A stretch of 64,000 nucleotides of DNA from Acidobacteriota bacterium (GTDB lineage: Bacteria; Acidobacteriota; Thermoanaerobaculia; Multivoradales; JBCCEF01), in the NCBI GenBank assembly GCA_039030395.1, contig JBCCEF010000020.1:17364-81363 (forward strand), given 5' to 3'. A program made the position numbers and the translations under genes. A model generated the notes under the pieces. The model was given only the letters and a program-made list of their open reading frames with translations, was not told where the DNA came from and made no database searches. Of the stretch, positions 1-35,167 are shown one piece after another; within the stretch, counting starts at the first letter, position 1, and each line of letters starts with the position of its first letter.

Positions 1-21
1 GACAAGGCGCGCCTGGATCGT

Positions 22-1761
22 TTGGCTGGGCTGTTTGGCGCCTCTTGCAAACTGCTCGAGTCGGTGGAGACAGAGGGTGATTCTGTGAGATCTCCGCCCT
101 TTCGCCGATCCCGATCGGTTGGCTCTCTGAGCCCTGAAGTAGAGCCTCTCGCTGGGCTGTATGCACATTTGACCGGTAGGACGTCCGCTCCGGCGGCCTC
201 CAGCCCGTCGATGAAGCCGGCCGTCTTGGTTGGATTCTTCCAGCACGCGACGCCGTCCTTCCTCCACCGGAGCTATCGAGATCTCGACGACAGCGCTCCC
301 GGCCTCCTGCTGGCGGAGGATGCCGAGGACCTTCGCCAGCAGATCTTGATTCGGTCGGCTGCCCTTTGCTTGAGCGGCTTCAATGAACCCTCCGATGCCG
401 CCATCTACGGCACCCTGCCGTTCGGCCGAGGGAGAGAGGAGGAGCAAGTTCTCGGCGGAAACGCGGAGCCAGCCGAGGTTCGAACTCTACTTGGGGGAGG
501 TGTCAATGTCCTGACCGTTGTCGCTCACGGTGACGGAGTCGACGCTTCACTCGGAGAGAAAAACACTCTCTGCCCCTACCCGCAGCGTCTGCGCGAGCTC
601 GGTGATCGCGAGGAGAGAAACGGCTGCCAGATCGAGAACTATTGTCACCGCTTGGAACTGCCGTACGACGAAGCGATCGGGGGAGAGGCGTTGCTTTCTC
701 CCGGTGACATCTCGGCGAAGGTACTGCTCTGGGCCTCCTGCCTCGGATTCCTTCCGGCGGGAACCGTGGTGGGCGCTGCCCATGGGCTGGGGCGCCGCTT
801 CCTGCAGAGCGACCGCATCGGAGCGGTGGTGACGGCGTGGCGAGTGCAGACCGTCGATCCTGTCTGGCTGGAATCGCTGGCCCGCCGCATCAATTCGGGG
901 GTCCCGGTCGGCCAAGCCTTGGCTCAGGCTCTGCGAGCGCGACCCGATCTCTCGGTCAACGGAGGCTACTGTCTTCTTGGAGATCCCGCTTTGCGAACAG
1001 GACGCCCCGGAGGCCCATCGGGGGCAGAAATCTTCGGTTCACGGCCGAAAATACGGGGAGCTATCGCAGCCGGTACCGGCAAAGATCCGAAGCCCGATGG
1101 CACTCCCTTCCTCATTCTCTGGTCTCAGGGTGACTTGGAGCAAGCCGATACTGCCGTGAGATCGCGCCTGCTCTACGAGATCGGCGAATATCGTCGGGCT
1201 CGGCAAGACGGCGGTGACCCGGAGCGGGGAGGCGACGCGCCGGGACCGCGCCTGCGGCAAGCAGCGATCGATCTTTGGTTCGGCCGAGGCCATCCGCTGG
1301 CCAGCGCCTACTGGCAAGAATTCGCCGCTACGGTTCCACTCGGCAACTTTCGGACCTGCCCGAGTTGCCGTCTTCCGGACAACCGGGTGTTCGCCGCCCG
1401 GGCGCGGTTCTCCGGCCGAGGAATCGCCGATCGGTTGGTGCTGAATTGCGCCGTGTGCGGCATTGTCACCGATGTTCCGGGGGGATTCGCCCTGGCGCTG
1501 CACCGAACAGAGACCGGCCTTCGATGGGTCGGCACCCGGCCGGCAAGGTGCTGGTCCGCTGGCGTTATCCTCAAGGCTCAACGGGTCGATCGCCGCCGCG
1601 CTCTGCCCTGGCCCGCCGACAGCGCGGGTCAACCCGATCGGGAGCTGAATTTGGTGCGCGTCGGGATGCGAGGCATCGTCGACGTGGGGGTATGCATGAT
1701 GGTGGAAAGCGAGGCCCTTTTTGCGTCGACCGTGGTTCGAATCACACCGCCGGACCTATAG
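22..1761 (+). CDS. hypothetical protein; possible clan-CD (caspase/gingipain/CHAT-like) cysteine peptidase with a C-terminal CxxC...CxxC zinc-ribbon-like motif. The frame is open back to position 1, so the 5' end may lie outside the window.
   Basis: This is a long ORF in a coding-like frame. A hydrophobic strand followed by His-Gly (VLTVVAHGDG) sits ~70 aa upstream of a hydrophobic strand followed by Cys (AKVLLWASCLGF), which matches the His/Cys dyad layout of clan CD peptidases. The motif CPSCRLPD...NCAVCGIV occurs near the C-terminus. The gene is convergent with the next gene, and their stop codons abut. Confidence 0.45.
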   Translation: MAGLFGASCKLLESVETEGDSVRSPPFRRSRSVGSLSPEVEPLAGLYAHLTGRTSAPAASSPSMKPAVLVGFFQHATPSFLHRSYRDLDDSAPGLLLAEDAEDLRQQILIRSAALCLSGFNEPSDAAIYGTLPFGRGREEEQVLGGNAEPAEVRTLLGGGVNVLTVVAHGDGVDASLGEKNTLCPYPQRLRELGDREERNGCQIENYCHRLELPYDEAIGGEALLSPGDISAKVLLWASCLGFLPAGTVVGAAHGLGRRFLQSDRIGAVVTAWRVQTVDPVWLESLARRINSGVPVGQALAQALRARPDLSVNGGYCLLGDPALRTGRPGGPSGAEIFGSRPKIRGAIAAGTGKDPKPDGTPFLILWSQGDLEQADTAVRSRLLYEIGEYRRARQDGGDPERGGDAPGPRLRQAAIDLWFGRGHPLASAYWQEFAATVPLGNFRTCPSCRLPDNRVFAARARFSGRGIADRLVLNCAVCGIVTDVPGGFALALHRTETGLRWVGTRPARCWSAGVILKAQRVDRRRALPWPADSAGQPDRELNLVRVGMRGIVDVGVCMMVESEALFASTVVRITPPDL

Positions 1762-3669
1762 AGATAAATCGTTGACGTTGTCGACCCCAAGGACCGCCGC
1801 GCACAACCGCGTCACGCCCAGGGCGAGTCCGACGCAAGGCGGTAGGCCGGCTTCGAGAATGCGAACGAAACTCTCGTCGTTCCGTTCGACCATCGGATGG
1901 CTGCGTGCGTGGTTCGCCAAGTCCTCCCGCACCCGCGAGGCGCTCAGCTCTTCGCGCACGATCTCGCCGCAGGTTTCGCCGTTCACCACCAGCCAGAACA
2001 GACTTGCTTCTTCTCCTGGCTGGGCCGACAGCGGACTCCGGTGCAGTGGGATGTCCGTCAGGACCACCATGCCGTCGAGCTGGCGTACCGCGCGCTTGGT
2101 CAGCGTCATCCTCCCCCGTTCGACCTCATCCGACTCCAGGCCCGCGGCTTCTAGAGCGTCCGCCACAGCTTCTCGGTCTTCCAGGTCGACGCCCAGGGTT
2201 TGATAACAGGCGTCCCGGGCGCTGACCTCGACGGCCTCCGGCAGGTCCGGCAAGAGGTTGCGGATCAGTCGCACGGCGAGGGCCGCCATGTCGTCCATCG
2301 AAGCGAGGGCGGCGTAGGCTTCGAGAAGGGTGAATTCCGGGCTGTGAGCGGCATCTCTTCCCTCGTTCCTGAAGCTCGGCCCGATCTCGAAGCATCGGGG
2401 GATCCCGCTGGCGATGGCCGCCTTCAGTCCCTTCTCGAAGGTCAGCCGGAGGTAGCCCCAGCGTTCGTCGGCCGCGACCCAGGTTCGAAAGGGCCGGGCT
2501 CGGCCACCGAAGAATCCTCGCTCCAGCACCGGGGTGGAGAGTTCGATGAAGCCGGCTTGCCGGAAGCCCGTGCGGAGGGTGGACAGAACCCCTGCCACGC
2601 CGTGGTTCAGGCGGTAGCGGTCGAAAAAGACCGGTGCCTCCTGGGGCGAAAGCTGGCAGGGTATGTGGCATAACATCTTGGTCACGAACACGGTCGGCGT
2701 GCCGGCCCGCGAGCGCTCCAGAGAGCCCTCGGTCACCAGGTAGTCGTGAATCCGAATCCGCTCGGTCCGAGCCTCTCCTGGAAGATTCGCCGGGAGTCCG
2801 ATCTGGAACCGCCGGCCGCCGGCCGCCAGATCGATGAAGGCGACGGTGCGGTGGCGCCGCAGGTGAACGACGCGACCCGCCACCACGGTCGAAGTCGATG
2901 TCGGATCCTCCAGCAGCTTCTCCGCGGCCTCCTCCGAAGGAAGGAGGTGCGGAGTGAAGGTCGCCGCCACCGGCTCGCTGTGGACGTCGGGAGGGAGGGC
3001 CGAGGAAGGTCGGGATGTAGCCCACTGCGGGTTCAGTTCCGGCAGAAACTCATGGACATCGCGGCGGCGGGGCGAGGCCGCCAAAAGCCGAACGGCCCAG
3101 TCGGTCAGGGCCTTTCGTCGATCGGGCGAGCAACCCTTCTGCGCCGCCATGCGGAGCCCGTGGCGGGCGGCGTAGAGCGGCAAGACGTTCGAGGAGGCAC
3201 CGTAGCCGGTGAGCAAGCCGGTCAACAGGTCGAAGGCCGATCGCCGCTTCTTGGGATGGTCGATCCACAGCAACTCCGCGGCCAGAGGGCCGAGGTCACC
3301 CTCCTTGACGCCTTCCCCCGCAGGGCTCAACGGCTTTCCTTCTCGCGCATCGGCGAACAGGCCCGGCAGGTCGGACTTGCCGTACCGGTAGACCGCTGGC
3401 TGTACACGGAGGCGCGACAGCCAAGCGGTCGAGAGTTGGAGAAGCGACCAGCGGTCTCCACCTTCGATCAACTCCTCCGGTAGAGAGAGCAGCAGGGCGG
3501 GCAATCCAGTCGGCCCGAGGGTCAGCCGATGCTCCTCGCCCTGCCGCAGTTCTTCACCCGTCTGGTGGAGGGTGCGCAACTGCCGCGCGAAGCTTCGGCC
3601 GAAGGCGTAGGGATCTTCCCCAGGATGTAAATGATCCATCATTATGTAGAGTAGCGGCAGAGCGTTCAT
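1756..3669 (-). CDS. divergent class IIb aminoacyl-tRNA synthetase paralogue (LysRS/AsnRS/AspRS-like) with a ~250-aa N-terminal extension of unknown fold
   Basis: An OB-fold anticodon-binding-like segment is present (VVAGRVVHLRRHRTVAFIDLAAGGRRFQIGL). Motif 1-like FIELSTPVLE, motif 2-like FEIGPSFRNEGRDAAHSPEFTLLEAYAA and motif 3-like GLPPCVGLALGVTRL are all present. The segment FWLVVNGETCGEIVREELS resembles the LysRS FElfi.g.E..n..sEl segment. The first ~250 residues match nothing I recognise. Confidence 0.8.
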   Translation of the reverse strand: MNALPLLYIMMDHLHPGEDPYAFGRSFARQLRTLHQTGEELRQGEEHRLTLGPTGLPALLLSLPEELIEGGDRWSLLQLSTAWLSRLRVQPAVYRYGKSDLPGLFADAREGKPLSPAGEGVKEGDLGPLAAELLWIDHPKKRRSAFDLLTGLLTGYGASSNVLPLYAARHGLRMAAQKGCSPDRRKALTDWAVRLLAASPRRRDVHEFLPELNPQWATSRPSSALPPDVHSEPVAATFTPHLLPSEEAAEKLLEDPTSTSTVVAGRVVHLRRHRTVAFIDLAAGGRRFQIGLPANLPGEARTERIRIHDYLVTEGSLERSRAGTPTVFVTKMLCHIPCQLSPQEAPVFFDRYRLNHGVAGVLSTLRTGFRQAGFIELSTPVLERGFFGGRARPFRTWVAADERWGYLRLTFEKGLKAAIASGIPRCFEIGPSFRNEGRDAAHSPEFTLLEAYAALASMDDMAALAVRLIRNLLPDLPEAVEVSARDACYQTLGVDLEDREAVADALEAAGLESDEVERGRMTLTKRAVRQLDGMVVLTDIPLHRSPLSAQPGEEASLFWLVVNGETCGEIVREELSASRVREDLANHARSHPMVERNDESFVRILEAGLPPCVGLALGVTRLCAAVLGVDNVNDLSL

Positions 3670-3866
3670 TCTGCCACGGGAGGGCCGGAGGGCTCACCCA
3701 GCCGGGTGTCCACAGCCATTCGGTGCAACCGGCCGACGACGGCAGGGTTCGGTCGCGGGCAGCGGTTGCGTAGACCGTTGGCGTTCAGGTAAATATATGC
3801 GCTGGTGCCCTTGCGTCATCTCACTGCGTCGCCGCGATCCCTTCTCTCTTTTCCCTCAGGAGCCGG

Positions 3867-5180
3867 ATGATTCCTCGACGCCCTTCCGATCTCGACGACC
3901 CCAAGCTCGAGGCCGAGACCGCCCATCCGATCGCGGGCGCGGAGGCCGTCTGGGCCAACGTGCCGGCGCTGCGGCGTGACTTCGGCCACCTTCCCGATGC
4001 GCCGACGACGACAGACGGCTGGCACACCTGGCTGGCCCGGCAGGGCGGACTGATCTCCGCCACCCAGGCGGCGCAGGAAGTGGCCAATACCCGGATCCCG
4101 ATCCGCGACGTGGCGGTGACCGTGTACCGCCTGCCGCGCGGCGGCCGCGCCTTCTCCGTTCCCCTGCGCTCCGTTGCCAGCGACTACGTGGATCCCATCG
4201 AAGGCGGCGGCCTGCTCAGCCTGAAGGCGGTCGGGGTCAAGCCGGGGGTGGTGCCCGAAGCCAACCTATTCAACTACAGCAACGGACTGCAGTGGTTGGA
4301 AGGGGTTCTGCACGAAGTTCTGATCCAGCGGGTGGTCGAGAAGGTGCTGCGGTACGCCGGCAGTTCGGTGAACTGTTTGCCGGTGTACGGAGCCCTCGAT
4401 GGCGGGTTCGCCGTTCGCGACAGCGAGGGCAATACCTGGCCGGCGGGGATTTTGGTTCGGCAGGCCCACCGCCGGCAGGTCAAGGGCTGGGACTTTCCGC
4501 TGCTCGGCAGCCCAGGCCAACAGCTGATGCTCGACACCGAGCTGGAACTCCGGCGCTACGGCATCACCTCGACTTCCGACAAGGGAACCTTCCAGCTCAA
4601 GCGGCACGCGGACGGGAGACTGGAGTTTCTCTGTGCCCACCTCGGGGGATTCGTTCCGGGAGACACTCCCGCGGGGGTTGCCCGCGGCCTGTGGGAGCGG
4701 TTCCGGACCTACGCCGAACCCGGTGAAGATTTCATTCGCTTCAAGGGGGTCGCCGTCCAGTTCACCCGCTTCGAGGAAGGGGTTGAACCACTGCTGCTCG
4801 ACTTCGGTGGCTTCCGCTTCTCCGACCGCTTCACCGGGCCGCTCCTCAGCTTGGTGCTCCAGCAGCCGAGCAACTGGGGCGGCACGATCAATCCGGATAG
4901 CGATGCCTATGTGCAGCCGGATCCGAATCGTGCTCTCGATCCTCGGTACTGGCGGGCGGAACCACTGGAGACGCTTTCGAAGAAGCACCTGGAAGGTGCT
5001 TTGGAGGCCCTGCCGGAGAGGCTGCCGGGGCCACCGGACGATGTGCCCTACTCGCCGGTGGAACATGTGGTCTGCCGCCTGGCCCAGGGATTCACCGGCG
5101 GCACCCTCGCAAGACAGGAAGTGGCCTCCGCCTTGGATCACCTCCTGGCGCTGACCACCGAGAGCCTGGAACGAGGCTAG
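3867..5180 (+). CDS. hypothetical protein (437 aa), member of the RiPP island; function unknown
   Basis: The ORF has coding-like composition and an AGGAG motif 4 nt upstream of the ATG. Its TAG stop overlaps the TAG stop of the convergent dehydratase gene in the palindrome CTAG (5177-5180). There are weak kinase-like hints only (SLKAVGVK, LLLDFGG). Confidence 0.6.
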   Translation: MIPRRPSDLDDPKLEAETAHPIAGAEAVWANVPALRRDFGHLPDAPTTTDGWHTWLARQGGLISATQAAQEVANTRIPIRDVAVTVYRLPRGGRAFSVPLRSVASDYVDPIEGGGLLSLKAVGVKPGVVPEANLFNYSNGLQWLEGVLHEVLIQRVVEKVLRYAGSSVNCLPVYGALDGGFAVRDSEGNTWPAGILVRQAHRRQVKGWDFPLLGSPGQQLMLDTELELRRYGITSTSDKGTFQLKRHADGRLEFLCAHLGGFVPGDTPAGVARGLWERFRTYAEPGEDFIRFKGVAVQFTRFEEGVEPLLLDFGGFRFSDRFTGPLLSLVLQQPSNWGGTINPDSDAYVQPDPNRALDPRYWRAEPLETLSKKHLEGALEALPERLPGPPDDVPYSPVEHVVCRLAQGFTGGTLARQEVASALDHLLALTTESLERG

Positions 5181-7888
5181 GCCCTCAGGCAGGACGAGTC
5201 CAACACCAGTTCCGTCGCCCAGCGTTCCCCCCGGGCGTCCATCGGAAAGGCCTCGGGAGTGGGCAGCATTTCCTCGAACTCCACCGGCCCGCCGGCCCGT
5301 TCGACGATGCCTGCCAGCAGTTCGAGGAAAGTTGGCGACCGCAGGTCGAGAAACTGTGGTTTGAAGGTCTGCTTGTCTCCAAAGATCACCCGCTCGATGA
5401 CGAAGACTCGCGCCGCGACGCCGTGAAGGCGTCGCCAGCGATCGAGGCCGACACGCGCCTGGGCGCCGGGTCGCTGCAGAATGTCGGCAAGCTCCGCCGC
5501 CGGCACCACCCAACGCCGGCGCGCCAGCACCAACCGGTCGAGAACCACCCGGTCGAGGTGCGTGACCTGGCCGTCGGTGCGCCGCGGTTGGGGTGGCGTG
5601 CGACTGCGGATCTCACCGGGCCCGAACTGCGCTAGGAAACCGATCAACGACGGCATGAAGGCGAGGGTGGCGGCGCCGAGATGGAGCGGCAACAGGCGCC
5701 AGCCCGCCGCATCGACTAGGACCGGCAGGGAATCGTCGAAGCGCACCCGCAGGGAGGCGAGTGGAATTCCCCGGTCCACCGCTACCGGCGGCGTTTCTCC
5801 CGGTAGCCATAGGGCACGTTCGGTCGGAACCTCGTGAACGTTGAGCGTGTCACCCTGGCTTGAATAAAGGTCGACGGGCTCCCCTCCCAGTGGATTCTGA
5901 CCCAGCCTCCGCAGGCCGGTCCCCGGGCCCATGCGGAAACCGTTGGCGATGCACCGACGGTCGGCCCGTTCCAGAATTGGCAGAAGGCGGCCGGGATAGC
6001 GGCTGGTGCCCTCGAAGACCCGATGGGCCATCCAGCGCCCGCCTTCGCCGCCGATTGGCTGGGCGAACAGGCATGGGCCGGACAGCGGGGTCACCCAGCC
6101 CGGCAGCTCGTCTAGCAGGGCCTCGAGGCCTCGGCGAGACATCACCGCCTCGCCGGCCGTGCCGGCGTCGCCCAGGCTCATTTCCGGGAGCGCACGCCAC
6201 AGTTTCCGGCGCTGTTTCTGGAGTTTGTCGAGGTCAGCCACAGCCAGTGGGTTGAAGCCGTGTCCATCGCTCGGGTCGGCCCCTTCTCCCAAGGTCCGAC
6301 GCACCGCGGGCCAGAGCGGTAGGGCGTGCTCGAAGAGGTCGAGGGCGGCCACCTCGTCGCGTTCCGGCCATTCGCGGCGGGCGATTTCCCGTAGGGTCAG
6401 CAGAATGTCGTAGCGGGGAGAGAGAAGGTCGAGAACGCGGAACCACGGTTCCACCTGACGCAGCAAGATCGTCGCGTCCTCCGCTCGCCCCAACACTGGC
6501 GTCGGCGCATCGGCGGCGGCGAGAGCGACGTCTTCGTAGGTCTCCGACCGCTTGTAGCGATGTAGTGTTGTCGTCGCCGGATAGCCCGCCGCGCGTCCGG
6601 CGACAAGCCAAGCCTCTTCGACGGCCCGGTCGATCGAGCGGGCGGCATCGACCGGCTCCTCACAGGTGGCGAAGGCCGATTCCGCCGCCAGCCAGGTGGC
6701 GAAGGCGTCTTTCCCCGGATCGCCCTCGACTCCGCCAAGCCAGTGGGCGATGCTCGATTCGAGGCGCGGTCCGGCGCTTGTCCAGGGTGCGGTGAGGACC
6801 AACACGCCCGCTGCAACCAGCCGGTCGAGGAGGCTCCGCGAGCGTTCTCGATCGCCGCCGAACTCTCCGCACAGCTTGTCCTCCAGATCTCCCAGCGTCG
6901 AGGCATCGGCAACTGGCTGACGCAGCCACTCGACGATCGTCGGATCGATGGTCACCGTCGCCGGCAGCCCGCCGATGCGGCGCAGGCGCAAGTTCTGATC
7001 TTCGCTCTTTGGAAGCCAGCGCACCGGTTTAATCAACCGGTGGCGGTCACCCTCCAGGTGGCGAAGGGAATCGTTGAGCTGAACGGGCCTTTGGCGCAGA
7101 ACCTCCGGTGACGCGAGCCACGCCGCCTCGATCTGCTCGACCAGGTAGCGCCGTACCCTCACCAGCGACCGCTCCTCCCACTCCCCCGGACACCCGACCA
7201 GCTGGATTCCCTCCGGAGAGTCCGGCCGAGCGCTGCCTCCGGCAGGCGGCGACCAGCCGGCGCGAGTCCAGCGGGTGAAGGTCGAGAAGGGCGAAAGCTT
7301 GAAGACGCCGCGGCTCCAGTAGCGCACCAGGCTGGCGCGGGCGCGTCGTGCTTTACGGCCGCGGCCCTGCAGCAGGGTCTTTCGCACCGCCGCCAGGCGC
7401 GAAGCCAGCGGTTGCGACGAGAGAGCCAGGGCGCGGCGAAAGGCAGGCTGATCGAGGGTGGAAACGAGAAAGGCGTCCTCGGCGCGCGAGCACTGGCGGT
7501 AGGTGGCATCGAGGTCGGAGTCGACCGCGTGGAGGTGCGTTGCCAGCGAGGCGAGCTGGCTGAGAGCACTGCGCGTCGAATCCGGCAGGACCTCCGACGG
7601 CATCTCCCGCCAGTCGCCGCCCGGGGGGCGACCGTTGAACAGGTCGCGCTTGAGCCGCAGCAAAGGGCTCCGGTGCTCCGGCGGCGCATTGCCCACGGCG
7701 ATGAAGAGTGCTTCGATCAGACCGGCACGCCGGGCATCGAGCTGCCGCACGAGATCTCGCCGCCTAGCCAGCAGCGGCTCGAGCCGTCGGCCGTCGAATG
7801 GGTCGGCGGGCGATGCCGACTGGCCGGCGATGCGTGCCGCCAGCAAAGGCGGCTGCTGAGACTCGTCCGTCGTCTCGATGTCCTTCAC
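5177..7888 (-). CDS. lanthipeptide/thiopeptide-type dehydratase, N-terminal (glutamylation, Lant_dehydr_N-like) protein of a split LanB; it could alternatively be a small-LanB/PEARL-type enzyme
   Basis: The protein is ~904 aa from GTG 7888. LanB N-domain hallmarks are present: LLRLKRDLFNGR, a SPFSTFT segment equivalent to the RxTPFGLF motif, GTSRYPGRLLP equivalent to G.SGRF, and a C-terminal KPQFLDLRSPTFLELL...GERWATELVLD end typical of the N-domain. No FF.RY..P.HLRLR elimination domain is present. The GTG start overlaps the upstream TGA (GTGA). The 185 codons upstream in the ORF-track entry are Arg/Pro-rich and overlap gene 7885-8934 in another frame. Confidence 0.85.
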   Translation of the reverse strand: MKDIETTDESQQPPLLAARIAGQSASPADPFDGRRLEPLLARRRDLVRQLDARRAGLIEALFIAVGNAPPEHRSPLLRLKRDLFNGRPPGGDWREMPSEVLPDSTRSALSQLASLATHLHAVDSDLDATYRQCSRAEDAFLVSTLDQPAFRRALALSSQPLASRLAAVRKTLLQGRGRKARRARASLVRYWSRGVFKLSPFSTFTRWTRAGWSPPAGGSARPDSPEGIQLVGCPGEWEERSLVRVRRYLVEQIEAAWLASPEVLRQRPVQLNDSLRHLEGDRHRLIKPVRWLPKSEDQNLRLRRIGGLPATVTIDPTIVEWLRQPVADASTLGDLEDKLCGEFGGDRERSRSLLDRLVAAGVLVLTAPWTSAGPRLESSIAHWLGGVEGDPGKDAFATWLAAESAFATCEEPVDAARSIDRAVEEAWLVAGRAAGYPATTTLHRYKRSETYEDVALAAADAPTPVLGRAEDATILLRQVEPWFRVLDLLSPRYDILLTLREIARREWPERDEVAALDLFEHALPLWPAVRRTLGEGADPSDGHGFNPLAVADLDKLQKQRRKLWRALPEMSLGDAGTAGEAVMSRRGLEALLDELPGWVTPLSGPCLFAQPIGGEGGRWMAHRVFEGTSRYPGRLLPILERADRRCIANGFRMGPGTGLRRLGQNPLGGEPVDLYSSQGDTLNVHEVPTERALWLPGETPPVAVDRGIPLASLRVRFDDSLPVLVDAAGWRLLPLHLGAATLAFMPSLIGFLAQFGPGEIRSRTPPQPRRTDGQVTHLDRVVLDRLVLARRRWVVPAAELADILQRPGAQARVGLDRWRRLHGVAARVFVIERVIFGDKQTFKPQFLDLRSPTFLELLAGIVERAGGPVEFEEMLPTPEAFPMDARGERWATELVLDSSCLRA

Positions 7889-9155: not shown

Positions 9156-9308
9156 ATGTCAGATGACGTTAAGAAGGGCCTGGACAAACTGGAGAACGTC
9201 GACATCACCGAGATTTCGGACGAGGATCTCGAAGGAGTGTCCGGTGGCGCCGAGATCGACGAAGGCGACTGCGACTCGTGGTGGTGCTGTTCGAACACCA
9301 ACGCATAA
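9156..9308 (+). CDS. RiPP precursor peptide (50 aa): MSDDVKKGLDKLENVDITEISDEDLEGVSGG / AEIDEGDCDSWWCCSNTNA
   Basis: A perfect AAGGAGG sits 6 nt upstream of ATG 9156. The leader is acidic and ends in the double-Gly-type motif LEGVSGG. The C-terminal 19 aa contain 3 Cys and 3 Ser/Thr. The gene lies directly between dehydratase-family genes. The upstream 26 codons of ORF 9078-9308 lack an RBS and look non-coding. Confidence 0.85.
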   Translation: MSDDVKKGLDKLENVDITEISDEDLEGVSGGAEIDEGDCDSWWCCSNTNA

Positions 9309-9329
9309 GCTGATTGGACAACCCGCAAG

Positions 9330-9372
9330 CGGCCCGCCCGCGTCCTCGACGCTGCGCGGGCCGTTTCCTTTT
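9330..9372 (+). terminator. GC-rich stem-loop plus T-rich tail immediately after the precursor gene (candidate attenuator / partial terminator)
   Basis: cggcccgc (9330-9337) pairs with gcgggccg (9356-9363). An inner stem gcgtc/gacgc is present, and the structure is followed by TTTCCTTTT (9364-9372). It sits between the precursor gene and the next biosynthetic gene. Confidence 0.5.
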
Positions 9373-9432
9373 GCGGCGAATCTCCAACGGGCATCCTCCG
9401 CAGGCGCCAGTCCAAGGAGCCTTCCCTTCCCT

Positions 9433-10491
9433 ATGACCATCCGCAATGGTCTCGCCGCCGGACACTGGACCGGCCATCACCTCCACTACCATGGGGAGCA
9501 GGACCTGCTTCTCGCTTCCCTCCTGATCCCGATCCTCCACCGGTGGTTTGCCGCCGGTTCCCTCGAACGCTTTTTCTTTGTCCGCTATGCCCTCGGCGGA
9601 CCCCACATTCGGCTGCGCTGCCGCTGGCGGGATACGAACGCCGAAGGCCGCTTTCAGGACGAACTCACCCGCGTCGCCACCCGCTTCTTCGAGCGGCACC
9701 CCTCCGCCTCGAGCTGGTCGCCGGACACCATCCGGCAGCGCAACCGAGGCATTCTTGCGCACGATCCCAGTGAAGTGGACGACGTGGTCTATCCGGACCA
9801 CTACGTGCGGCAGGTGATTTTCGAACCGGAGACCGACCGCTACGGTGGCGAGGCGCTCGTCGCCGCCTCGCTGGAGGTCTTTTGCCTCTCGAGTCTAGCC
9901 GTCTGTGACGCCTTGGCCAGTGCGGAGTTCTCCCCGAAGGAATCGAAATACGCCCTCCAAGTACTCGCCGCTCAAGCGGTGGCGAGCGTCGAGGATACGC
10001 TCGACTTCAGCCGCTTGATGGAGAGCCTCGGTGAGCGAGCACGGCGGCGCTTTCCGGCGGCCCTCGACCAGGCGGACGAACGGTTCGCCCAGACGGGCCG
10101 GGCCTTCTCTCGCGGTCTTTACGGTCAGCTCCGTGGCCCAGCTTCCGACGCCGTGGACCGTCTCCAGGCGGGACTCCGGCTGTTGCGCCGGCAGTTGGGC
10201 GAGGTCGGCGATTCGGCATCGACGGTCCTGATGAGCCAGCTCCACATGACGGCGAATCGCCTTGGCCTGTCGAACCTCCGCGAAGTCTATCTGTTGCGGC
10301 TTCTCGAGTGCGCCGCGGGCCAGTGGCTGGAGGAGGATCTTGCCCTGCCGCCGACCTCCGGCCAGCCATCGGCGGGCGCTCCCGATTCGCTGGCTGAACT
10401 CGTCAACGGAGGACTCGACCGCTTCGCCTCGTCCGGTGACTCCAGTACACTTCAGCCGGTGGATTCTCGAGCACAGCGGAGGGGACCATGA
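9433..10491 (+). CDS. SpaB_C / Lant_dehydr_C-like protein, copy 2 (most canonical; likely the glutamate-elimination partner)
   Basis: It carries ERFFFVRYALGGPHIRLRCRW (compare NisB FFLRYTDPKPHIRLRIK) and FEPETDRYGGEAL (compare NisB YDQEVERYGG). The start is taken at ATG 9433; the upstream part of ORF 9163-10491 overlaps the precursor gene and is Arg/Pro-rich. The stop overlaps the next start (ATGA). Confidence 0.8.
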   Translation: MTIRNGLAAGHWTGHHLHYHGEQDLLLASLLIPILHRWFAAGSLERFFFVRYALGGPHIRLRCRWRDTNAEGRFQDELTRVATRFFERHPSASSWSPDTIRQRNRGILAHDPSEVDDVVYPDHYVRQVIFEPETDRYGGEALVAASLEVFCLSSLAVCDALASAEFSPKESKYALQVLAAQAVASVEDTLDFSRLMESLGERARRRFPAALDQADERFAQTGRAFSRGLYGQLRGPASDAVDRLQAGLRLLRRQLGEVGDSASTVLMSQLHMTANRLGLSNLREVYLLRLLECAAGQWLEEDLALPPTSGQPSAGAPDSLAELVNGGLDRFASSGDSSTLQPVDSRAQRRGP

Positions 10492-11723
10492 CAGGGTCGG
10501 TAGAGACCATCTTTACGGCTGAACGGTTGTTTTCTCCTCTCGGGCTCAGCACTTTTGTCGCCCAGTATTGGCAGTCGCAACACCTGCTGCTGCAGCGTGA
10601 TCACTCCTCTCACTACGGCGACCTGTTTCGCCTTCGAGACATCGACCGCTACCTGACGCTGGCGGCGGAAACAGGGCTGGGCAACATCTCCCTCATCCGG
10701 GACGGCAAGGTCACCCGAAAGTTGCGGCCAAGGGGACTCGACGTCCGACAGCTCTACTCCGCTCTAGGCAACGGCTCGACCCTTCTCTTCGAGCAGATCG
10801 ATCACCTCTGGATGCCGGTGCGTGAGCTGGCGGCGGACCTCGCTCGGTCACTCAGTGCGCGAGTGAAGGTCAACGTGTACCTGACGCCCCCGGGCCGCCA
10901 GGGCGCACCGATTCACCCGGACATTCAAGATGTTTTCGTCCTGCAGCTCGAAGGGGCCAAGGAATGGCACTTGTATGGCGAGTCCATGTACGAGCCGGTG
11001 GAGACCACCGAATACCTGACGGAACTCGGCTACAGAAGGCCGGTCATGCCGAAGGAACCCGAGGCCATGCCGCCGGTGACCCTCGAGCCCGGCGATCTGC
11101 TCTATATGCCGAGGGGCCTCCTCCACCGCGCCGTAGCCCCGGCGGATCGCCCGTCGCTCCACCTGACCGTGTGCGCAACGCCGATCTACTGGGTGGATTT
11201 CCTCAAGGTGGCCATTGAGGCTGCTTCGCTGGAGCGTCCGGAACTCGCCGCGGCTCTGCCTCCGGGATTCGAATGGGCCGGCGTCGACGCCACTCTGCAG
11301 GAAGCCTTCGAGAGCGCCGTCGATCTGGTGCGGCGGGGGACTTCCTTCGCTACCGTGGCTCAGGCTTTTGCTCAGCGGACCGAGAAGCTTCCCGGAGATG
11401 GCCATTTCCATACCCTCCTGCACCTCGAAGAGATCACCGCAGAGACCGTCCTTGAAGCTCGGACCGGCTCCCCCTGCGAGATTGTCCACCGGGGCGACAA
11501 GGTCGAACTGCGGTGCGGTTCCATCAAGCTCCAGGGACCCGCCGGTGTGGCACAGGCCTTCGAACGGATACGCGATCGGCCGCGGCTACGGGTGGCGGAG
11601 TTCTCCGAAGACTTGAGTGCAGAGGCGAAGGTTTCCCTCGCCCGGCGCCTGGTGTCCGAGGGACTGCTGCGGGTCGCCGGCCGTGCCGTCGCAACCGCTG
11701 AGGGCGCCGTGAAGACAGGGTAG
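10488..11723 (+). CDS. JmjC / cupin-4 (ribosomal-oxygenase-like) Fe(II)/2-oxoglutarate-dependent oxygenase
   Basis: The segment GAPIHPDIQDVFVLQLEGAKEWHLY contains the HxD facial-triad residues and the DVF.lQ.eG.K.W signature. PGDLLYMPRGLLHRAVA contains the distal His. There is an ATGA overlap with the upstream gene. The last codons and the stop lie inside the transposon's left inverted repeat. Confidence 0.8.
   Translation: MTGSVETIFTAERLFSPLGLSTFVAQYWQSQHLLLQRDHSSHYGDLFRLRDIDRYLTLAAETGLGNISLIRDGKVTRKLRPRGLDVRQLYSALGNGSTLLFEQIDHLWMPVRELAADLARSLSARVKVNVYLTPPGRQGAPIHPDIQDVFVLQLEGAKEWHLYGESMYEPVETTEYLTELGYRRPVMPKEPEAMPPVTLEPGDLLYMPRGLLHRAVAPADRPSLHLTVCATPIYWVDFLKVAIEAASLERPELAAALPPGFEWAGVDATLQEAFESAVDLVRRGTSFATVAQAFAQRTEKLPGDGHFHTLLHLEEITAETVLEARTGSPCEIVHRGDKVELRCGSIKLQGPAGVAQAFERIRDRPRLRVAEFSEDLSAEAKVSLARRLVSEGLLRVAGRAVATAEGAVKTG
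11712..11716. repeat. 5-bp target-site duplication AAGAC (left copy)
   Basis: An identical AAGAC directly abuts the outer end of both terminal inverted repeats (11712-11716 and 18260-18264). Confidence 0.85.
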
Positions 11724-11973: not shown

Positions 11974-13572
11974 ATGTCGGTACTCAAGGCCCCGGTAGAC
12001 TGTCGAATGCCGCAAACCTCCAACGCTTCACGAGCCACAGTCGAAACTGCTTCGCCGCGTGGCAGCGCCCTGCTGTCGGTATTGCTTGTCATAAGCCTCG
12101 CGGGGATGGCGCCAGCTCTAGCGCAGGAAGCCGGTTGCCCGACCAACGTACCGGCGACTGTGATTCAGAGCCTCGAGAACGCCGAGATCCGCGCCCAGGC
12201 AGGGCAGGCGCCGAACTGGGCTCAGATAGGCGGTGACTACCAAAGGGCTCTTCGGCTGGTCCAGGCTCAGATTCGAGAGCACGAGAGCAAGCTGCGCCAA
12301 TACGAAGCCGGGATCGCGCAAGGTAACGGTGCGCAGTGGAGGAAGGCCGCCTCCCTGACGCGAGACGGTCTCAAACTCAACCGAGCCGCAGCCCAAGTCC
12401 TCGCCTGTCACGCTCGGCGGTCGCATGGAGGCGCCACAGGCGCCCCCGGCTCGAGGTCATCGCAAGAGACTCTCTTCGGCGAGACCGTCCGTCCGGTTGG
12501 CAGGGAGCCGAGGTCCCGAGGCTGGGGCCCCCGCCGCTCCCAAACCGACGATCTACCGCGGGCGGACCTGGGTGAGGCTTTCGACACAGCCCTGGATGAG
12601 CTGCTAGAGGGCCTCCTGGACTGGGAAAACGACCCAGGAGAAGAGACCGAATCAGGGGCCAACTCCGGTCCCGAAACCGGCTGTAAGGCTCAGGTCACTG
12701 CGCGACTCAAGACTGACAACACGGGACAAGTCTTCCTTGACGTTCGCGCCAGCTCTGATGAACCGAGTGCCAACGTCTCCTTTCAGCTTTCCAACCCAGG
12801 CCTCACAGAGCGGCCCTTCGGAGATCCGGTGTTCTTGGAAACCACCGAAGGGTTCGCCGAGCTGTCCATCCCACTGGCGCACGCCAGGCGCGATGCTGCG
12901 ACCGAGTCCTCCCCATGCAGCAATCTCGAAGAAGCCAGCCGGCAGCTTCGAGAGAACTGGACTCGGCTCTCAACCAAGTACGACGTTCTGGACACCTACC
13001 TGTCAGAGGTCAGCCGCTATCGCGAGGAGTTCTCAGAGACAGAGACATGGGTAGCTGTGGGCTATATCGCTCTCGCGTTTAAGCAGGTTGCCGAGACCCT
13101 GGAGGTGTACCTAATGGGTTCGAGCCTCAGCACCTGCGTCGGCGGCTTGGCGAACGCCACGATCTCCGAGATTGTCTCCCCGGCCTCCTGCCTCGCCGGC
13201 GGGAACTGCCTGTACGACTTCCTAAACAAGCACGCAAGTCTATGGCTGGAGGCAGCCTCCTGCACTGGATCACAGATCGCCGCGACCATCTCCGGCATCA
13301 AGGGTCGACTGGACTTTGTGATCAGCACCGCTGAGAACTACTCGCACCTGCAGGATATCAACGAGTTCAGGGACATCGTCCGCGGGAACATGCTTCGTCT
13401 CGAAGGCGAGCTAAGGAAGGGTGACGCCAAGCTGAAGCAGCTCGCGAACAGTCGCCGCGAGGTTGAAGAGGCGATACAAGCTCTCCACTCTTCGTGCCGA
13501 TCCTCGGCCCTTGAGGGGATCGCAGTGAAAGTCCTTTCCTGTCAAGTCAAGCTTCCGGAACCGCTCGGATAG
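11974..13572 (+). CDS. transposon passenger 1: secreted hypothetical protein (532 aa)
   Basis: The N-terminus is signal-peptide-like (ALLSVLLVISLAGMAPALAQEAG). Coiled-coil-like segments are present. GC content is lower than in the host flanks. No recognisable domain was found. Confidence 0.6.
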   Translation: MSVLKAPVDCRMPQTSNASRATVETASPRGSALLSVLLVISLAGMAPALAQEAGCPTNVPATVIQSLENAEIRAQAGQAPNWAQIGGDYQRALRLVQAQIREHESKLRQYEAGIAQGNGAQWRKAASLTRDGLKLNRAAAQVLACHARRSHGGATGAPGSRSSQETLFGETVRPVGREPRSRGWGPRRSQTDDLPRADLGEAFDTALDELLEGLLDWENDPGEETESGANSGPETGCKAQVTARLKTDNTGQVFLDVRASSDEPSANVSFQLSNPGLTERPFGDPVFLETTEGFAELSIPLAHARRDAATESSPCSNLEEASRQLRENWTRLSTKYDVLDTYLSEVSRYREEFSETETWVAVGYIALAFKQVAETLEVYLMGSSLSTCVGGLANATISEIVSPASCLAGGNCLYDFLNKHASLWLEAASCTGSQIAATISGIKGRLDFVISTAENYSHLQDINEFRDIVRGNMLRLEGELRKGDAKLKQLANSRREVEEAIQALHSSCRSSALEGIAVKVLSCQVKLPEPLG

Positions 13573-13671
13573 GAGGCCATGCGGTTCATCGAGCTTGTCT
13601 TGATGCGTCCCCGGTCTCGCCGCCTACCCGTTCCCATACAGCCAGGTAGAAACAACACTGGAGGAGCGCGC

Positions 13672-15162
13672 ATGTATACCATTACGAGACAATCGAACCT
13701 TCGGCCAGTCCTGGATCTCGCTCTTGCGGCGCTTCTGCTCGCTTTCTCCGCGACGTCGGCGCTCGCGGAGGATCCAATTGAGGCTCGATACCAAGGTGGC
13801 GACTACAGTGGTGCGATCGAGTTTGCCGAGAATCGCCTCAAAGAGGCCCCGGAGGATCTGCGTGCCCGCAAGCTGATGCTCGCTGCGCTGCTCAAGCTTG
13901 GGGATGCTCATTTCGCTCGGACGCTACTGGATGACCTGCCCAACGACCGTGCGCATGAGCGCTTCAAGCAAAGTGCAGAGAGAATCCTTGAGCGGTTTGA
14001 GGCTAGGGAGCTGGACGAGGCCAAGATCATCGCCGCTCTTGCGCACTTCCAGACCGACTCGGCAATAGACGTGATCCGTGAATCCCATTTTACGCAGCTG
14101 GAAAAGAAACTCCTAGAGTCGCAGATTCTGGCCCTTTCTGGGCGCTTTTCCGAGGCGCTTGGGGCCATCTCAGGCGCTGAGGTTTCGAGCTACTCGCAGA
14201 AGAAGCTTCTAGACGACCTCACATCGCGGACTCGGGAGAAGGCCCAGCGTTTTGAAGAGTTGTGGGACAGCGAGATTCGCTTTTTTGTAGATTCGCCAGA
14301 GTCGTCTGCCCACTGGGGCTACTGCACCAAGTCAATACCTAACTACACCCTCGAAGACTTCGTCAGAGTTGTTGACGATGTGGCACAGCTCGCACCCCTA
14401 GACGGCCGAGTGCTAGACCTTATCTTCTTGTCTTCGCTCTTCGTCACGGACGACTACGAGCCTGTGCGGAGACTGGGCGAGGCCATCTTGTCGGCGAAGG
14501 GTAGCCTAGGCTTTTGGGCGCACTCCAGAGACTTCCACTACCGATTGGTCGTTGACAGTCGACAGCGGACAGTGAGCATCCAAGAGCAGCGGCCAATCGA
14601 AACGAGCTTTCGGCAAAATTTGATGGGCACTGGATGCAAGAAATCGAAGCAGTCCTACGGGAATCCATTAAAGCCGTATCGGGTCTCGTTCGATGCAATC
14701 CGAAGTGTGGAGCAGCACAATGGCGGAAACAACAGCTTTGATGACAGTTTCATAGGCTTCAACGGCCAACACGAATCCGGTAACCTCAAGGTTGCCACGC
14801 TCGTCTTCTGGGAGTGGGGCCGAGCCGCGGAAAGTGCGGTCTACCGGAAGCTGGGGCGGTTCTTCGTGGACCTTTTTGGGGTCTCTGCTGCCAAACTGGT
14901 TCCGGAGCGCCAGGACCTGGGCTCTGGTGCCCTAGCGCTAGTGTTCGGAGCTGCCTACGGCCTTCAGGCCCTGAACCAGGGGACCTCCTTCGACATAGCG
15001 GCGTTTCAGCAGGACTTGATGGACGGCGCAAAGCTGCTGGAGGAAGCGAACGCCCAGAACCGGGAGCGGCGGATCGCCTGGATGCAGCACCTCAAGTCTG
15101 AGGAGATTCTCAGCATCGACGAGTCGCGATTCGAGTCCTTAGAAGACCTTCTCGGGAGCTAA
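13672..15162 (+). CDS. transposon passenger 2: secreted hypothetical protein with a TPR-like N-terminal region
   Basis: GGAGGA lies 6 nt upstream of ATG 13672. A signal peptide is present (LALAALLLAFSATSALAEDP). Helical-repeat-like sequence follows (EAPEDLRARKLMLAALLKLGDAHFAR). Confidence 0.6.
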   Translation: MYTITRQSNLRPVLDLALAALLLAFSATSALAEDPIEARYQGGDYSGAIEFAENRLKEAPEDLRARKLMLAALLKLGDAHFARTLLDDLPNDRAHERFKQSAERILERFEARELDEAKIIAALAHFQTDSAIDVIRESHFTQLEKKLLESQILALSGRFSEALGAISGAEVSSYSQKKLLDDLTSRTREKAQRFEELWDSEIRFFVDSPESSAHWGYCTKSIPNYTLEDFVRVVDDVAQLAPLDGRVLDLIFLSSLFVTDDYEPVRRLGEAILSAKGSLGFWAHSRDFHYRLVVDSRQRTVSIQEQRPIETSFRQNLMGTGCKKSKQSYGNPLKPYRVSFDAIRSVEQHNGGNNSFDDSFIGFNGQHESGNLKVATLVFWEWGRAAESAVYRKLGRFFVDLFGVSAAKLVPERQDLGSGALALVFGAAYGLQALNQGTSFDIAAFQQDLMDGAKLLEEANAQNRERRIAWMQHLKSEEILSIDESRFESLEDLLGS

Positions 15163-18295: not shown

Positions 18296-19222
18296 TCAGC
18301 CGGCGGCAACGTCGAGGGCTCGCTTCCAGCCGTAGAGGATGAGCGGGCGCTGGCGATGGATCGGCAGGGCGAGCTGCTTGAGGGTGACGTGGACCACTTC
18401 TCGCAGCAGGGCGGCACCGGTGTAGGGCGAGGTTTCCGAAGGACGATGCTCGCCCGGCGGAATGATCGCCAGCAGGCGCTCCAGGGCCGCCGCCGTCGGG
18501 CCCTCGCTTGAGGACTCGCTCTCCCAGGCGCGAGATAGGAGGTCCAGGTTTGCCGGTCCGAGGACTTCGGCTAGGCGGGCCGCCATGTCGTCTTCGGTCT
18601 GCATCCGGCGGATAATCGACGCGGCATGGTGGCGCCAGTAGACCGAGGGATGGCTCCAGGCCCGTCCGAGTACGGCCTCCAGCCGCGACAGCCAGGCGAC
18701 CGCCGCCGCCATCGCAGATGTACCCTCTCCTAGGGTTCGCAGAACGTCGTCCGCGAGGCGGTCGAAGATCCGCCAGGCTTCGTCCGGCCTCGAGGTCGCC
18801 CGCAGCAGGCGGAGCGGGTAACCGTCCGCTGGCTGCGCACACCACCGAACGGAATCGCGTTCGGCGAAGCCCTCCTCGGCATCGGTCACACAAAGGGATT
18901 TGCCGAGGCATTGGCGGTGCCGAAGGGCCAGTTCGTCCTCGCCGATCTCGCCGCTGGCGGGATGCTCGGACAGGTGGTGACGGATCGCTTCGCCGAGAGC
19001 CCGCCTCACCTCCCCAAGACGCCCCGGAGAGACGGTCAGGAGGAGAAACAGATGGGGGCCTCGGGCATCGAACCGGTCGAACCAGAAGTGGCTGATGGAT
19101 CCGGTCCGGCGCAGGTCGCGGATTGCCGGTACAAGGCCGTTCACCAGCAGAGCCGTCTGCTCCGGCAGGTGCCAGCGATAGACATTCCCGGCGAGGTGGG
19201 GTCCCGCTTCTATGGAGCTCAA
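18296..19222 (-). CDS. SpaB_C / Lant_dehydr_C-like protein, copy 3 (divergent)
   Basis: It carries SISHFWFDRFDARGPHLFLLLTV, a divergent W.F.R[YF]....GPHL.L.L signature located ~45 aa from the N-terminus, as in the other two copies. Before the Tn3 insertion this gene was convergent with the JmjC gene. Confidence 0.6.
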   Translation of the reverse strand: MSSIEAGPHLAGNVYRWHLPEQTALLVNGLVPAIRDLRRTGSISHFWFDRFDARGPHLFLLLTVSPGRLGEVRRALGEAIRHHLSEHPASGEIGEDELALRHRQCLGKSLCVTDAEEGFAERDSVRWCAQPADGYPLRLLRATSRPDEAWRIFDRLADDVLRTLGEGTSAMAAAVAWLSRLEAVLGRAWSHPSVYWRHHAASIIRRMQTEDDMAARLAEVLGPANLDLLSRAWESESSSEGPTAAALERLLAIIPPGEHRPSETSPYTGAALLREVVHVTLKQLALPIHRQRPLILYGWKRALDVAAG

Positions 19223-19238
19223 CGCAGGGAACGTCGGC

Positions 19239-19988
19239 TCAGGGGTAAGGGATCAAGATGTCGTCCAGCTCATAGAGCTGACGAGCCTTGCCGCAGAGAT
19301 ATTCCGCCCGCAGCCCATGCTTGAGGATGTGTTCCAGTGACCGGCGCTCCGGAATCGTCAGGCTCGGCAGAGAAAGCACATAGGAATCCAGCGTGGAGTA
19401 GTAGATGGGCTTGCCGCGACGGTCGATGAGCAACGGATCTCGGCCGGCGGCGAGGGCGCAGATCGTCCGGTAGAAGCTCTTGACGACCTCCCAACGGCGC
19501 TGCGCCCGGGCGATCCGCGCCTCCAGGAAAAAGAACTCCACCCCATGATGGGCCAAGGGCAAAAGGAAGGGGAGAAATCCGACGACCTCGCGCAGGCAGT
19601 CCCGCGCCCTCGAAACATCGTTCCAGGCCGCTTGATGTTGCCCCCTGAGAAACGATTCGTAGGCCGCAGCGGTGAAGTACCAGCGGCCCACTACTCCCGC
19701 CCAGTCGGGTCGCTCCTGCTCGAAAGTAGCCATGCCTTCTCGCGCCCGGGAGAGCGCCTCACCGGCTTCCGCCAGGCGACGGCCGTGCAGCAACTGAACC
19801 GCCTCGTCGACCGCCGCGCGCGCTTTCGCCGCATCGCTCTCGAGGTAGGCCTGAATCCACGAGTCGCCCTCCCGGCCACCCTTCATGACGAGGAATTCCC
19901 ACGGCGGAAAATCTTCCATGGTGAGCTTCCCGGTGTCCGGGGAAGGAGCCCACCGGACCGGTGCGTCGGTACTTGCTGCCACGCCCAT
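19239..19988 (-). CDS. hypothetical protein (249 aa), upstream partner of SpaB_C-like copy 3
   Basis: The ORF is coding-like and lies 16 nt from the downstream gene on the same strand. No recognisable motif was found. Confidence 0.5.
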   Translation of the reverse strand: MGVAASTDAPVRWAPSPDTGKLTMEDFPPWEFLVMKGGREGDSWIQAYLESDAAKARAAVDEAVQLLHGRRLAEAGEALSRAREGMATFEQERPDWAGVVGRWYFTAAAYESFLRGQHQAAWNDVSRARDCLREVVGFLPFLLPLAHHGVEFFFLEARIARAQRRWEVVKSFYRTICALAAGRDPLLIDRRGKPIYYSTLDSYVLSLPSLTIPERRSLEHILKHGLRAEYLCGKARQLYELDDILIPYP

Positions 19989-20155
19989 TTGAGTCGAAGA
20001 TTAGCACGGGCCATCGGTCCGCCACGCACCGACCTTCGGGGAGAAGCGACGCCCAACCCTTGCATAGACGGATCTGCATGGAAGACAATGGAGTGGCTAT
20101 CCGGTGATGCGGTACCCGTTTGTAGGATGAATTTTTCGATTGAAGGAGGTCTGCC

Positions 20156-35051: not shown

Positions 35052-35167
35052 CCGGGGTGCTGCGCTGCCGAAAACGGCCTCGGAAGCCCTGAGAACGCGA
35101 AGGCCGCTCACGTGAGCGGCCTTCCCGGCTGGGAGAACCCCTCACGGGGCTTCAGTCAGCATTCTAT

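Follow-up and report, generated by a model that had tools for sequence, protein, structure and literature searches.

A LysRS-derived protein with a kinase remnant beside a lanthipeptide-type cluster of an Acidobacteriota bacterium: a candidate tRNA-linked lysyl-transfer enzyme of secondary metabolism

Paralogues of aminoacyl-tRNA synthetases (aaRSs) that have departed from translation are rare and each of them has opened a new chemistry, as exemplified by EpmA, AcmF, SbzA and the MetRS-like hydrazine synthetases. EpmA (also PoxA or GenX), the beta-lysine ligase of elongation factor P, is a paralogue of lysyl-tRNA synthetase (LysRS) working outside of translation, and aaRS paralogues located in biosynthetic clusters are already a known kind of enzyme. 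The ascamycin system has an additional AlaRS, AcmD, and an AlaRS-like transferase, AcmF, which uses Ala-tRNA (PMC12945691). The AcmF/AcmD pair and SbzA (SB-203208) are examples of aaRS-like aminoacyl transferases found alongside an extra cluster aaRS (PMC12945691). Here, we analysed an aaRS-like gene located at positions 1756..3669 (-) of a stretch of 64,000 nucleotides (hereafter, the window) from an Acidobacteriota bacterium (contig JBCCEF010000020.1). We consider it moderately likely, from its sequence and that of its relatives, that this gene encodes a pathway-dedicated, tRNA(Lys)-linked lysyl-transfer enzyme belonging to a LysRS-derived clade of secondary metabolism, and neither a housekeeping nor a resistance copy.

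The open reading frame (ORF) is intact, with 637 codons from an ATG start to a TAG stop, and its GC content at third codon positions (GC3, 0.78) is similar to that of the neighbouring genes, indicating a host-like codon bias. A previous sequence-only reading of the window had placed a LysRS-like class IIb ORF here, with a recognizable OB fold and class II motifs 1-3, and we found all these elements in the quoted places, including the segment LRLTFEKGLK (residues 407-416), in which the Glu is retained. The Pfam domain tRNA-synt_2, corresponding to the class II core of the D/K/N synthetases, covers residues 361-635. The Pfam OB fold is sub-threshold in this protein (residues 262-332, 17 bits versus a cut-off of 27) but evident in its closest relative, P0017 (40 bits), and in the AlphaFold2 (AF2) model (strands 261-336). 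This model, built with the family alignment, has a predicted local distance difference test score (pLDDT) of 83.8 and displays a LysRS fold, with a helical N-terminal domain, a linker, an OB barrel and the core; the model obtained from the single sequence (pLDDT 38) was unusable. Both the search of PDB sequences and the fold search retrieved LysRS, the Foldseek matches to LysRS structures reaching about 1e-27. The parts of the gene are the following:

1756..3669 (-): aaRS-like gene, encoding a 637-aa paralogue derived from LysRS, in which a linker joins a dead-kinase remnant to the OB fold and the class IIb core
3025..3669 (-): N-terminal domain, residues 1-215, mostly helical (model pLDDT about 80-90), defined by hhalign and alignment A2
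3355..3393 (-): former kinase catalytic loop, residues 93-105, VYRYGKSDLPGLF, aligning to V.IHGDFHPWNIF of the long family members
2896..3024 (-): linker, residues 216-258, of low confidence (pLDDT <50 at 217-240)
2662..2895 (-): OB-fold anticodon-binding domain, residues 259-336
2803..2877 (-): anticodon triad segment, residues 265-289, GRVVHLRRHRTVAFIDLAAGGRRFQ, with R271, F278 and Q289
1756..2640 (-): class IIb catalytic core, residues 344-637, with motifs 1-3 (Pfam E-value 5.1e-32; LysRS matches in PDB)
2314..2373 (-): motif 2, FRNEGRDAAHSPEFTLLEAY, with FRNEG at 433-437 followed by HSPEF..LLEAY
1948..2001 (-): rewired metal-site segment, LFWLVVNGETCGEIVREE, with L557, W559, T566, E569, E573 and E574
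1804..1842 (-): motif 3, PPCVGLALGVTRL, with GVTRL at 618-622, R621 being the putative equivalent of LysU R480

The NCBIfam models that score best against the aaRS-like protein are those of LysRS, with scores far below their cut-offs (NF001756, 147.3 bits versus 468; TIGR00499, 132.2 bits versus 427.6), and its closest canonical matches are just 27-30% identical. The AspRS and AsnRS models give less than 40 bits. The second-best family is EpmA (TIGR00462), but the score of 94.5 bits versus a cut-off of 286.9, together with the presence of an OB domain, rules out an EpmA/PoxA identity. The protein is not a LysX either, since it matches neither PF09924 nor PF16995 and its N-terminus aligns to an APH-type domain instead. 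Several traits of a housekeeping class II LysRS are present, i.e., the OB domain with a U35 triad, motifs 1-3 and the lysine-binding Glu/Glu/Tyr set, but this identity was rejected as well: the equivalog and subfamily scores are not reached, and the pair of Mg-binding acids preceding motif 3 is replaced by W559 and T566. By comparison, the cluster-borne LysRS of the relatives' loci L033 and L105 score 515-560 bits. The earlier suggestion of a LysRS-type class IIb paralogue is thus borne out, and a protein with such scores, grouping apart from LysRS and LysX and located among biosynthetic genes, can hardly be the housekeeping enzyme. We detected no second aaRS-like gene and no other LysRS within the 64-kb window.

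Residue conservation was counted over 33 family members, which are 22-35% identical. In the OB domain, R271, F278 and Q289, with their 7/11 spacing, correspond to what we take to be the class IIb triad that reads the anticodon base U35. These residues are conserved in 33/33, 33/33 and 31/33 members, respectively, and the OB domain of the aaRS-like protein accordingly has the triad predicted to read U35. In motif 2, we assume that R434, E436, H442, F446, E450 and Y452 are the equivalents of LysU R262, E264, H270, F274, E278 and Y280. The positions equivalent to the lysine-binding residues are kept throughout the family: E412 (LysU E240) and E450 in all 33 members and Y452 in 32. The motif 2 Arg (R262 equivalent) is likewise present in 33/33 and the motif 2 Glu in 32/33, the adenine-stacking position is a Phe or a Tyr in 33/33, and the motif 3 Arg (R480 equivalent) is kept in 30/33. 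As judged from these equivalences, the core retains the residues holding the alpha- and epsilon-amino groups of lysine, the adenine ring and the alpha- and gamma-phosphates. The metal site has a different composition. The position of the first Mg-binding Glu (LysU E414) is occupied by a Trp in 31/33 members (W559 in the aaRS-like protein) and that of the second (LysU E421) by a Glu in only 13/33 (T566 here). Three residues beyond E421, at the position of LysU N424, an Asp or a Glu is found in 33/33 members (E569 here), while E573 and E574 occupy the LysU positions 428 and 429. Canonical LysRS and LysX proteins in the same alignment keep both metal-binding acids. We read this pattern as retained binding of tRNA, lysine and an adenine nucleotide combined with an altered metal/phosphate chemistry.

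The N-terminal 250 residues had been said to match no known domain. This is correct for Pfam and NCBIfam, in which we obtained no match, but they are not a novelty of this protein: P0017 aligns with it from residue 24 to 636, and the extension appears to be a family-wide kinase remnant. A comparison by hhalign between the profile of the short N-termini and the profile of the kinase-type N-termini indicated that the N-terminus shares homology with the APH-type kinase domain of longer family members, over the C-terminal half of that domain (probability 98.2%, E-value 4.6e-14, 183 columns). Five of these longer members (760-803 aa) bear the signature IHGDFHPWN...TG.LHT..G..EDD, and two of the five (P0019 and P0029) exceed the APH cut-off (PF01636). 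In the aaRS-like protein, the kinase N-lobe is absent, and VYRYGKSDLPGLF, which aligns to the catalytic loop, has lost both the catalytic Asp and Asn, the loop reading YGKSDLPG. Since the profile match, the position of VYRYGKSDLPGLF on the catalytic loop and the missing N-lobe all point in the same direction, the extension is, as far as sequence comparison goes, a decayed kinase C-lobe and not a new domain. A functional APH-type kinase was rejected, as the region has neither a Pfam match to PF01636 nor an N-lobe and the H-G-D-x-x-x-x-N loop is not kept. The following linker includes the segment TFTPHLLPSE, common to P0017.

An exhaustive search led to 34 cluster representatives at E<1e-30, most of them 570-660 aa long. 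The best relatives share the N-terminal extension and align end to end with the aaRS-like protein (P0017 over residues 24-636 and P0023 over residues 22-632). The sequence-only reading had called for a phylogenetic placement; in a neighbour-joining (NJ) tree, which is a rough distance tree of the core region only, the family forms a clade apart from LysRS and LysX, with the aaRS-like protein nearest to P0023, P0017, P0019 and P0029. The helical N-terminus fused to the OB and LysRS-like parts, the Trp at the E414 position, the Asp/Glu at the N424 position and this grouping all identify the protein as a member of the clade (P0017-P0056 and P0002), which includes sequences from actinomycetes, Phycisphaerae, Bacillota and candidate-phylum bacteria. 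The family was recovered by the exhaustive search, whereas a word-indexed search with the full protein gave only one closer relative and LysX proteins; word-indexed searches with the N-terminus alone gave no matches, and the family profile also missed the family. Scans with the aaRS-like protein alone found no close relatives in genome or metagenome contigs, and the plasmid search gave one unannotated match from Kitasatospora. Further fusions of LysRS-like cores were observed in P0038, P0040 and P0042, with an N-terminal YqcI/YcgG-like domain (weak), an N-terminal AdoMet decarboxylase domain and a C-terminal S66 peptidase. SCO3397 (PMC3123327) is a LysX and does not belong to this family. We found nothing relevant on LysRS-like enzymes of such clusters in the literature searched, and a clade of LysRS-derived enzymes combining a kinase remnant, a rewired metal site and such a neighbourhood is not described there.

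We collected about 33 loci of the family (labels within L001-L105). The recurrent neighbours encode S-adenosylmethionine-dependent methyltransferases, MccF-like S66 peptidases, AsnA-like cores, P450, DCD and YcgG-like proteins, Leu/Phe-tRNA transferases, GNAT proteins and genuine LysRS. The actinomycete loci have an operon in common, in which the aaRS-like gene is accompanied by a P450, two DCD genes, a YqcI/YcgG-like gene, one or two methyltransferases and an AAA_33 kinase. The loci of the members nearest to the aaRS-like protein encode an S66/MccF-like peptidase, an AsnA-like class II core, a methyltransferase and a P450 or PhyH oxygenase. Genuine LysRS are encoded in 13 loci, class I in 11 and class II in two, and pass the equivalog cut-offs where tested: the class I enzymes score 362 bits on PF01921 and pass TIGR00467, and the class II enzymes of L033 and L105 score 549-560 bits versus a cut-off of 468. 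In our alignment, the L033 enzyme (3838..5520) has a Met and a Gln in place of the canonical Arg and Glu (LysU 412 and 414) and may be a drug-insensitive variant. In three Streptomyces loci (L008, L012 and L013, around 12950..14500), a pyridoxal phosphate-dependent enzyme of the ornithine/diaminopimelate decarboxylase type replaces the class I LysRS, which is another link to lysine. An MccE-type GNAT (Acetyltransf_3) is present in L002 and L016, and the Leu/Phe-tRNA protein transferase gene aat in L002, L016 and L103, its product passing the equivalog cut-off. In the locus L022, from a candidate-phylum metagenome-assembled genome, the aaRS-like gene is accompanied by a class I LysRS, an S66 peptidase, an AsnA-like core and a methyltransferase. 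The S66 proteins of these loci score below the LdcA cut-off. Because two unrelated LysRS classes recur beside the paralogue together with MccF- and MccE-type genes, we infer that the clusters of the family make, and resist, a LysRS-directed, lysine-containing compound of the aminoacyl-nucleotide type. No tRNA genes were found in the family loci or near the aaRS-like gene of the window, and homologues of the LanB and SpaB_C genes of the window are absent from the relatives' loci, both in the search of L001-L105 and in the Pfam-annotated contexts. In the Phycisphaerales locus L010 (5420..8255, -), a 494-aa protein without Pfam match and an HNH-domain protein adjoin the cluster; they are probably an unrelated defence-type pair. 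The locus of the closest relative adjoins an IS4 fragment.

In the window, the aaRS-like gene lies 1.5 kb from a genuine cluster for a peptide made by ribosomes and modified after its translation (RiPP), with precursor, LanB-N, SpaB_C and JmjC genes. The surrounding features are the following:

1..1761 (+): convergent ORF of at least 586 aa, continuing past the left window edge, without family match
3792..3819 (-): sigma-70-like promoter match, about 120 bp upstream of the aaRS-like ATG (weak evidence)
3867..5180 (+): divergent ORF of 437 aa, without detectable family
5177..7888 (-): LanB N-terminal (glutamylation-type) protein, Lant_dehydr_N 55.5 bits, divergent, with a likely GTG start
9156..9308 (+): candidate RiPP precursor of 50 aa, MSDDVKKGLDKLENVDITEISDEDLEGVSGG|AEIDEGDCDSWWCCSNTNA, preceded by an AAGGAGG ribosome-binding site (a perfect Shine-Dalgarno sequence)
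10488..11723 (+): JmjC-type oxygenase, with homologues near relatives in L003, L007 and L014 (34-36% identity)
15434..18217 (+): Tn3-family transposase, dividing the region
18296..19252 and 19239..20000 (-): third Lant_dehydr_C/SpaB_C gene and a 253-aa ORF without family match, beyond the Tn3 transposase

The aaRS-like gene had been described as wedged stop-to-stop between two genes. This is true at its 3' end, where its stop (CTA, 1756-1758) abuts the TAG (1759-1761) of the convergent ORF, but not at its 5' end, where it diverges from ORF 3867..5180 across a 197-bp spacer. The gene is a separate transcription unit, and the unidentifiable 437-aa ORF stands between it and the LanB-N gene. The number of sigma-70-like matches in the first 12 kb of the window (one found) is close to that expected (0.8). 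The ORF 1..1761 had no match in Pfam, NCBIfam, PADLOC or PDB; nor did it or ORF 3867..5180 match PDB sequences, those databases, the neighbours of the relatives or, by hhalign, the kinase profile. Within ORF 1..1761, the stretch VVAHGDG...LLWASCLG may represent a His/Cys dyad of the caspase/CHAT-like type, and the C-terminus bears a CxxC...CxxC. The GTG of the LanB-N gene and the TGA of the SpaB_C-like gene upstream of it share nucleotides (GTGA, 7885..7888, -), which suggests that the two genes are translationally coupled; because of this overlap, the 1088-aa ORF call for LanB-N is about 185 codons too long. The precursor ORF is followed by a GC-rich hairpin 3' of its stop codon and overlaps, in another frame, the 5' end of the long ORF 9163..10491, so that the SpaB_C gene probably starts at the ATG at 9433. 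This SpaB_C gene and the JmjC oxygenase gene are both downstream of the precursor. Among the neighbours in the window, only the JmjC gene has homologues close to relatives of the aaRS-like gene. We did not take this link as proof of cluster membership, since these homologues sit some 4 kb beyond the conserved operon and occur only in three related Kitasatospora loci. The genes located beyond the Tn3 transposase may be a displaced piece of the RiPP cluster. Genes for tRNA-Cys(GCA), tRNA-Gly(GCC) and tRNA-Gly(CCC) are present at 34977..35242 and 48812..48887 (-), far from the cluster and without a U35 anticodon.

In the reading that we favour, the enzyme would still bind tRNA(Lys) and a lysyl/adenine-nucleotide ligand and would transfer a lysyl (or lysine-like) group as part of a pathway. 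Two modes are conceivable: (a) the enzyme would charge tRNA(Lys) for a downstream transferase dependent on aminoacyl-tRNA (aa-tRNA), or (b) like AcmF and SbzA, it would lysylate, by means of Lys-tRNA(Lys) or Lys-AMP, an intermediate of the pathway lodged in the former ATP site. Several points weigh against this proposal or limit it. Options (a) and (b) are indistinguishable by sequence, and the retained motif 3 Arg and motif 2 Arg, Glu and His would equally suit ordinary ATP-dependent activation. The residue numbering and roles are assumed from the LysU and AspRS structures and not taken from a modelled complex. A tblastn search with all partner types of the relatives found none of them in the 64-kb window, in which the left flank of the gene is limited to 1.7 kb. 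Finally, residue 557 is an Arg in 32/33 members and a Leu in the aaRS-like protein alone, and because of this unique change and of the Thr at the second metal position (T566), the window copy could be impaired. Its location beside a lanthipeptide-type cluster is an exception among the antibiotic-like clusters of the family.

This location recommends the role that the sequence-only reading had named first, that of supplying aa-tRNA for a PEARL-like (peptide aminoacyl-tRNA ligase) step: the enzyme would load lysine or a modified (e.g., JmjC-hydroxylated) lysine onto a tRNA, and a PEARL-like LanB-N protein would add this residue to the precursor 9156..9308. The RiPP cluster next door is real, the anticodon triad is conserved, JmjC homologues occur near relatives in the three Kitasatospora loci, and LanB and PEARL enzymes consume aa-tRNA (PMC12945691). 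The comparative support expected from co-occurrence is nevertheless absent, with a LanB homologue in none of the about 33 loci, and in the window the gene is a transcription unit of its own, separated from LanB-N by an unrelated ORF. The SpaB_C elimination-type proteins, moreover, suit a split dehydratase dependent on Glu-tRNA better than a PEARL, and the amino-acid pocket is lysine-like and not glutamate-like; for these two reasons, we favour an ordinary Glu-tRNA-dependent dehydratase as the neighbour. We keep a dedicated supplier in play as possible but doubtful, because some relatives adjoin other aa-tRNA-dependent transferases, i.e., aat in L002, L016 and L103. The absence of every family partner from the window would be explained otherwise if the gene were a stray or decaying copy, acquired horizontally without its pathway near Tn3-type mobile DNA (transposase at 15434..18217) and now non-functional or only able to bind its ligands. 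The R557L change found in no other member, the residues T566 and A616 where the family is otherwise conserved, and the IS4 fragment adjoining the closest relative are consistent with this scenario, which we regard as realistic but unlikely given the intact 637-codon ORF, the host-like codon bias and the conservation of about 20 of the 24 near-invariant family positions; the missing partners may, in addition, sit to the left of the window edge.

The two other roles proposed earlier fare less well. Direct attachment of lysine or beta-lysine to the side chain of a peptide or protein, without tRNA, is the activity of EpmA/PoxA, itself a LysRS paralogue, whose model ranks second among the families (94 bits). 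This score is far under the cut-off of 287, and EpmA has no anticodon-binding domain, whereas the family keeps an OB domain in which the U35 triad is invariant; an EpmA-like role, which fits this invariance poorly, is quite improbable. Resistant aaRS copies are also known in biosynthetic clusters (e.g., AcmD and SbzA), and a drug-insensitive LysRS could sustain translation while the product of the cluster inhibits the housekeeping enzyme. Here, however, the canonical Mg-binding glutamates are missing, and the protein misses by roughly 300 bits or more the LysRS equivalog models that the cluster-borne LysRS of the relatives pass. That slot is filled, in the relatives' clusters, by the separate genuine LysRS. 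The scores, the metal site and this separate LysRS make both a housekeeping role and self-resistance very unlikely, the latter being hardly credible. The related suggestion that an aaRS is the target of the product has gained family-level evidence from the cluster-borne LysRS and the MccF- and MccE-type genes, but not yet for the window. A pathway-dedicated lysyl-transfer enzyme linked to tRNA(Lys) is therefore the role that we retain.

The combination of cluster-borne LysRS of either class with MccF- and MccE-type genes predicts that the family clusters produce antibiotics that resemble aminoacyl nucleotides and are directed at LysRS. With its location next to a LanB-type RiPP cluster, the window copy would allow one to test whether such enzymes can be re-used for peptide tailoring. 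A bolder proposal, to which we attach only low confidence, is that a LysRS-derived enzyme has been recruited to a RiPP pathway, passing lysine or an oxygenase-modified lysine, via tRNA(Lys), to a divergent enzyme of the LanB type, or else straight to the precursor MSDD...GG|AEIDEGDCDSWWCCSNTNA, and that, separately, the clade could mark widespread unrecognized LysRS-targeting lysyl-nucleotide antibiotics, in which class I and class II LysRS are interchangeable as resistance or supply genes. If the recruitment were true, this cluster would be the first of the LanB/PEARL type to carry a synthetase paralogue of its own.

Among known systems, the class II LysRS (LysS/LysU; TIGR00499, NF001756) give the best structure and sequence matches and share with the aaRS-like protein the OB domain, the class IIb core, the lysine-binding Glu/Glu/Tyr and the arginines of motifs 2 and 3. 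The aaRS-like protein differs from them by its low identity (27-30%), its scores far under the cut-offs and a core about 30 residues shorter, and the clade by the Trp replacing the first Mg-binding Glu, the unconserved second one, the kinase-remnant N-terminus and the location in biosynthetic clusters. EpmA, without an anticodon-binding domain, acts on a protein mimicking tRNA, whereas the clade keeps the OB domain with the U35 triad. LysX, the MprF-LysRS fusion of actinomycetes, provides the top BLAST-level matches and resembles the clade in having a LysRS module fused to a second domain and a non-translational use of Lys-tRNA; however, its LysRS part is canonical, with both metal-binding acids, and its partner is a membrane MprF domain and not a kinase remnant. 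The neighbouring LanB-N protein belongs to the aa-tRNA-consuming family of the PEARL/LanB enzymes, but no relative of the clade is linked to a LanB gene in the about 33 loci, and we found no PEARL/LanB cluster with its own LysRS paralogue in the literature searched. The S66 peptidases and Acetyltransf_3 GNAT proteins that recur beside family members recall the immunity set of microcin C (MccF S66 and MccE-type GNAT), except that the family loci encode neither an MccB/ThiF-type adenylyltransferase nor a heptapeptide precursor and that these immunity genes are absent from the window. As for AcmF/AcmD and SbzA, they derive from AlaRS or IleRS and the clade from LysRS, and the window copy has no accompanying LysRS; like them, however, the clade consists of cluster-embedded aaRS paralogues, the clusters of the relatives include a separate, genuine aaRS specific for the same amino acid, and the acceptor would plausibly sit in the adenylate site.

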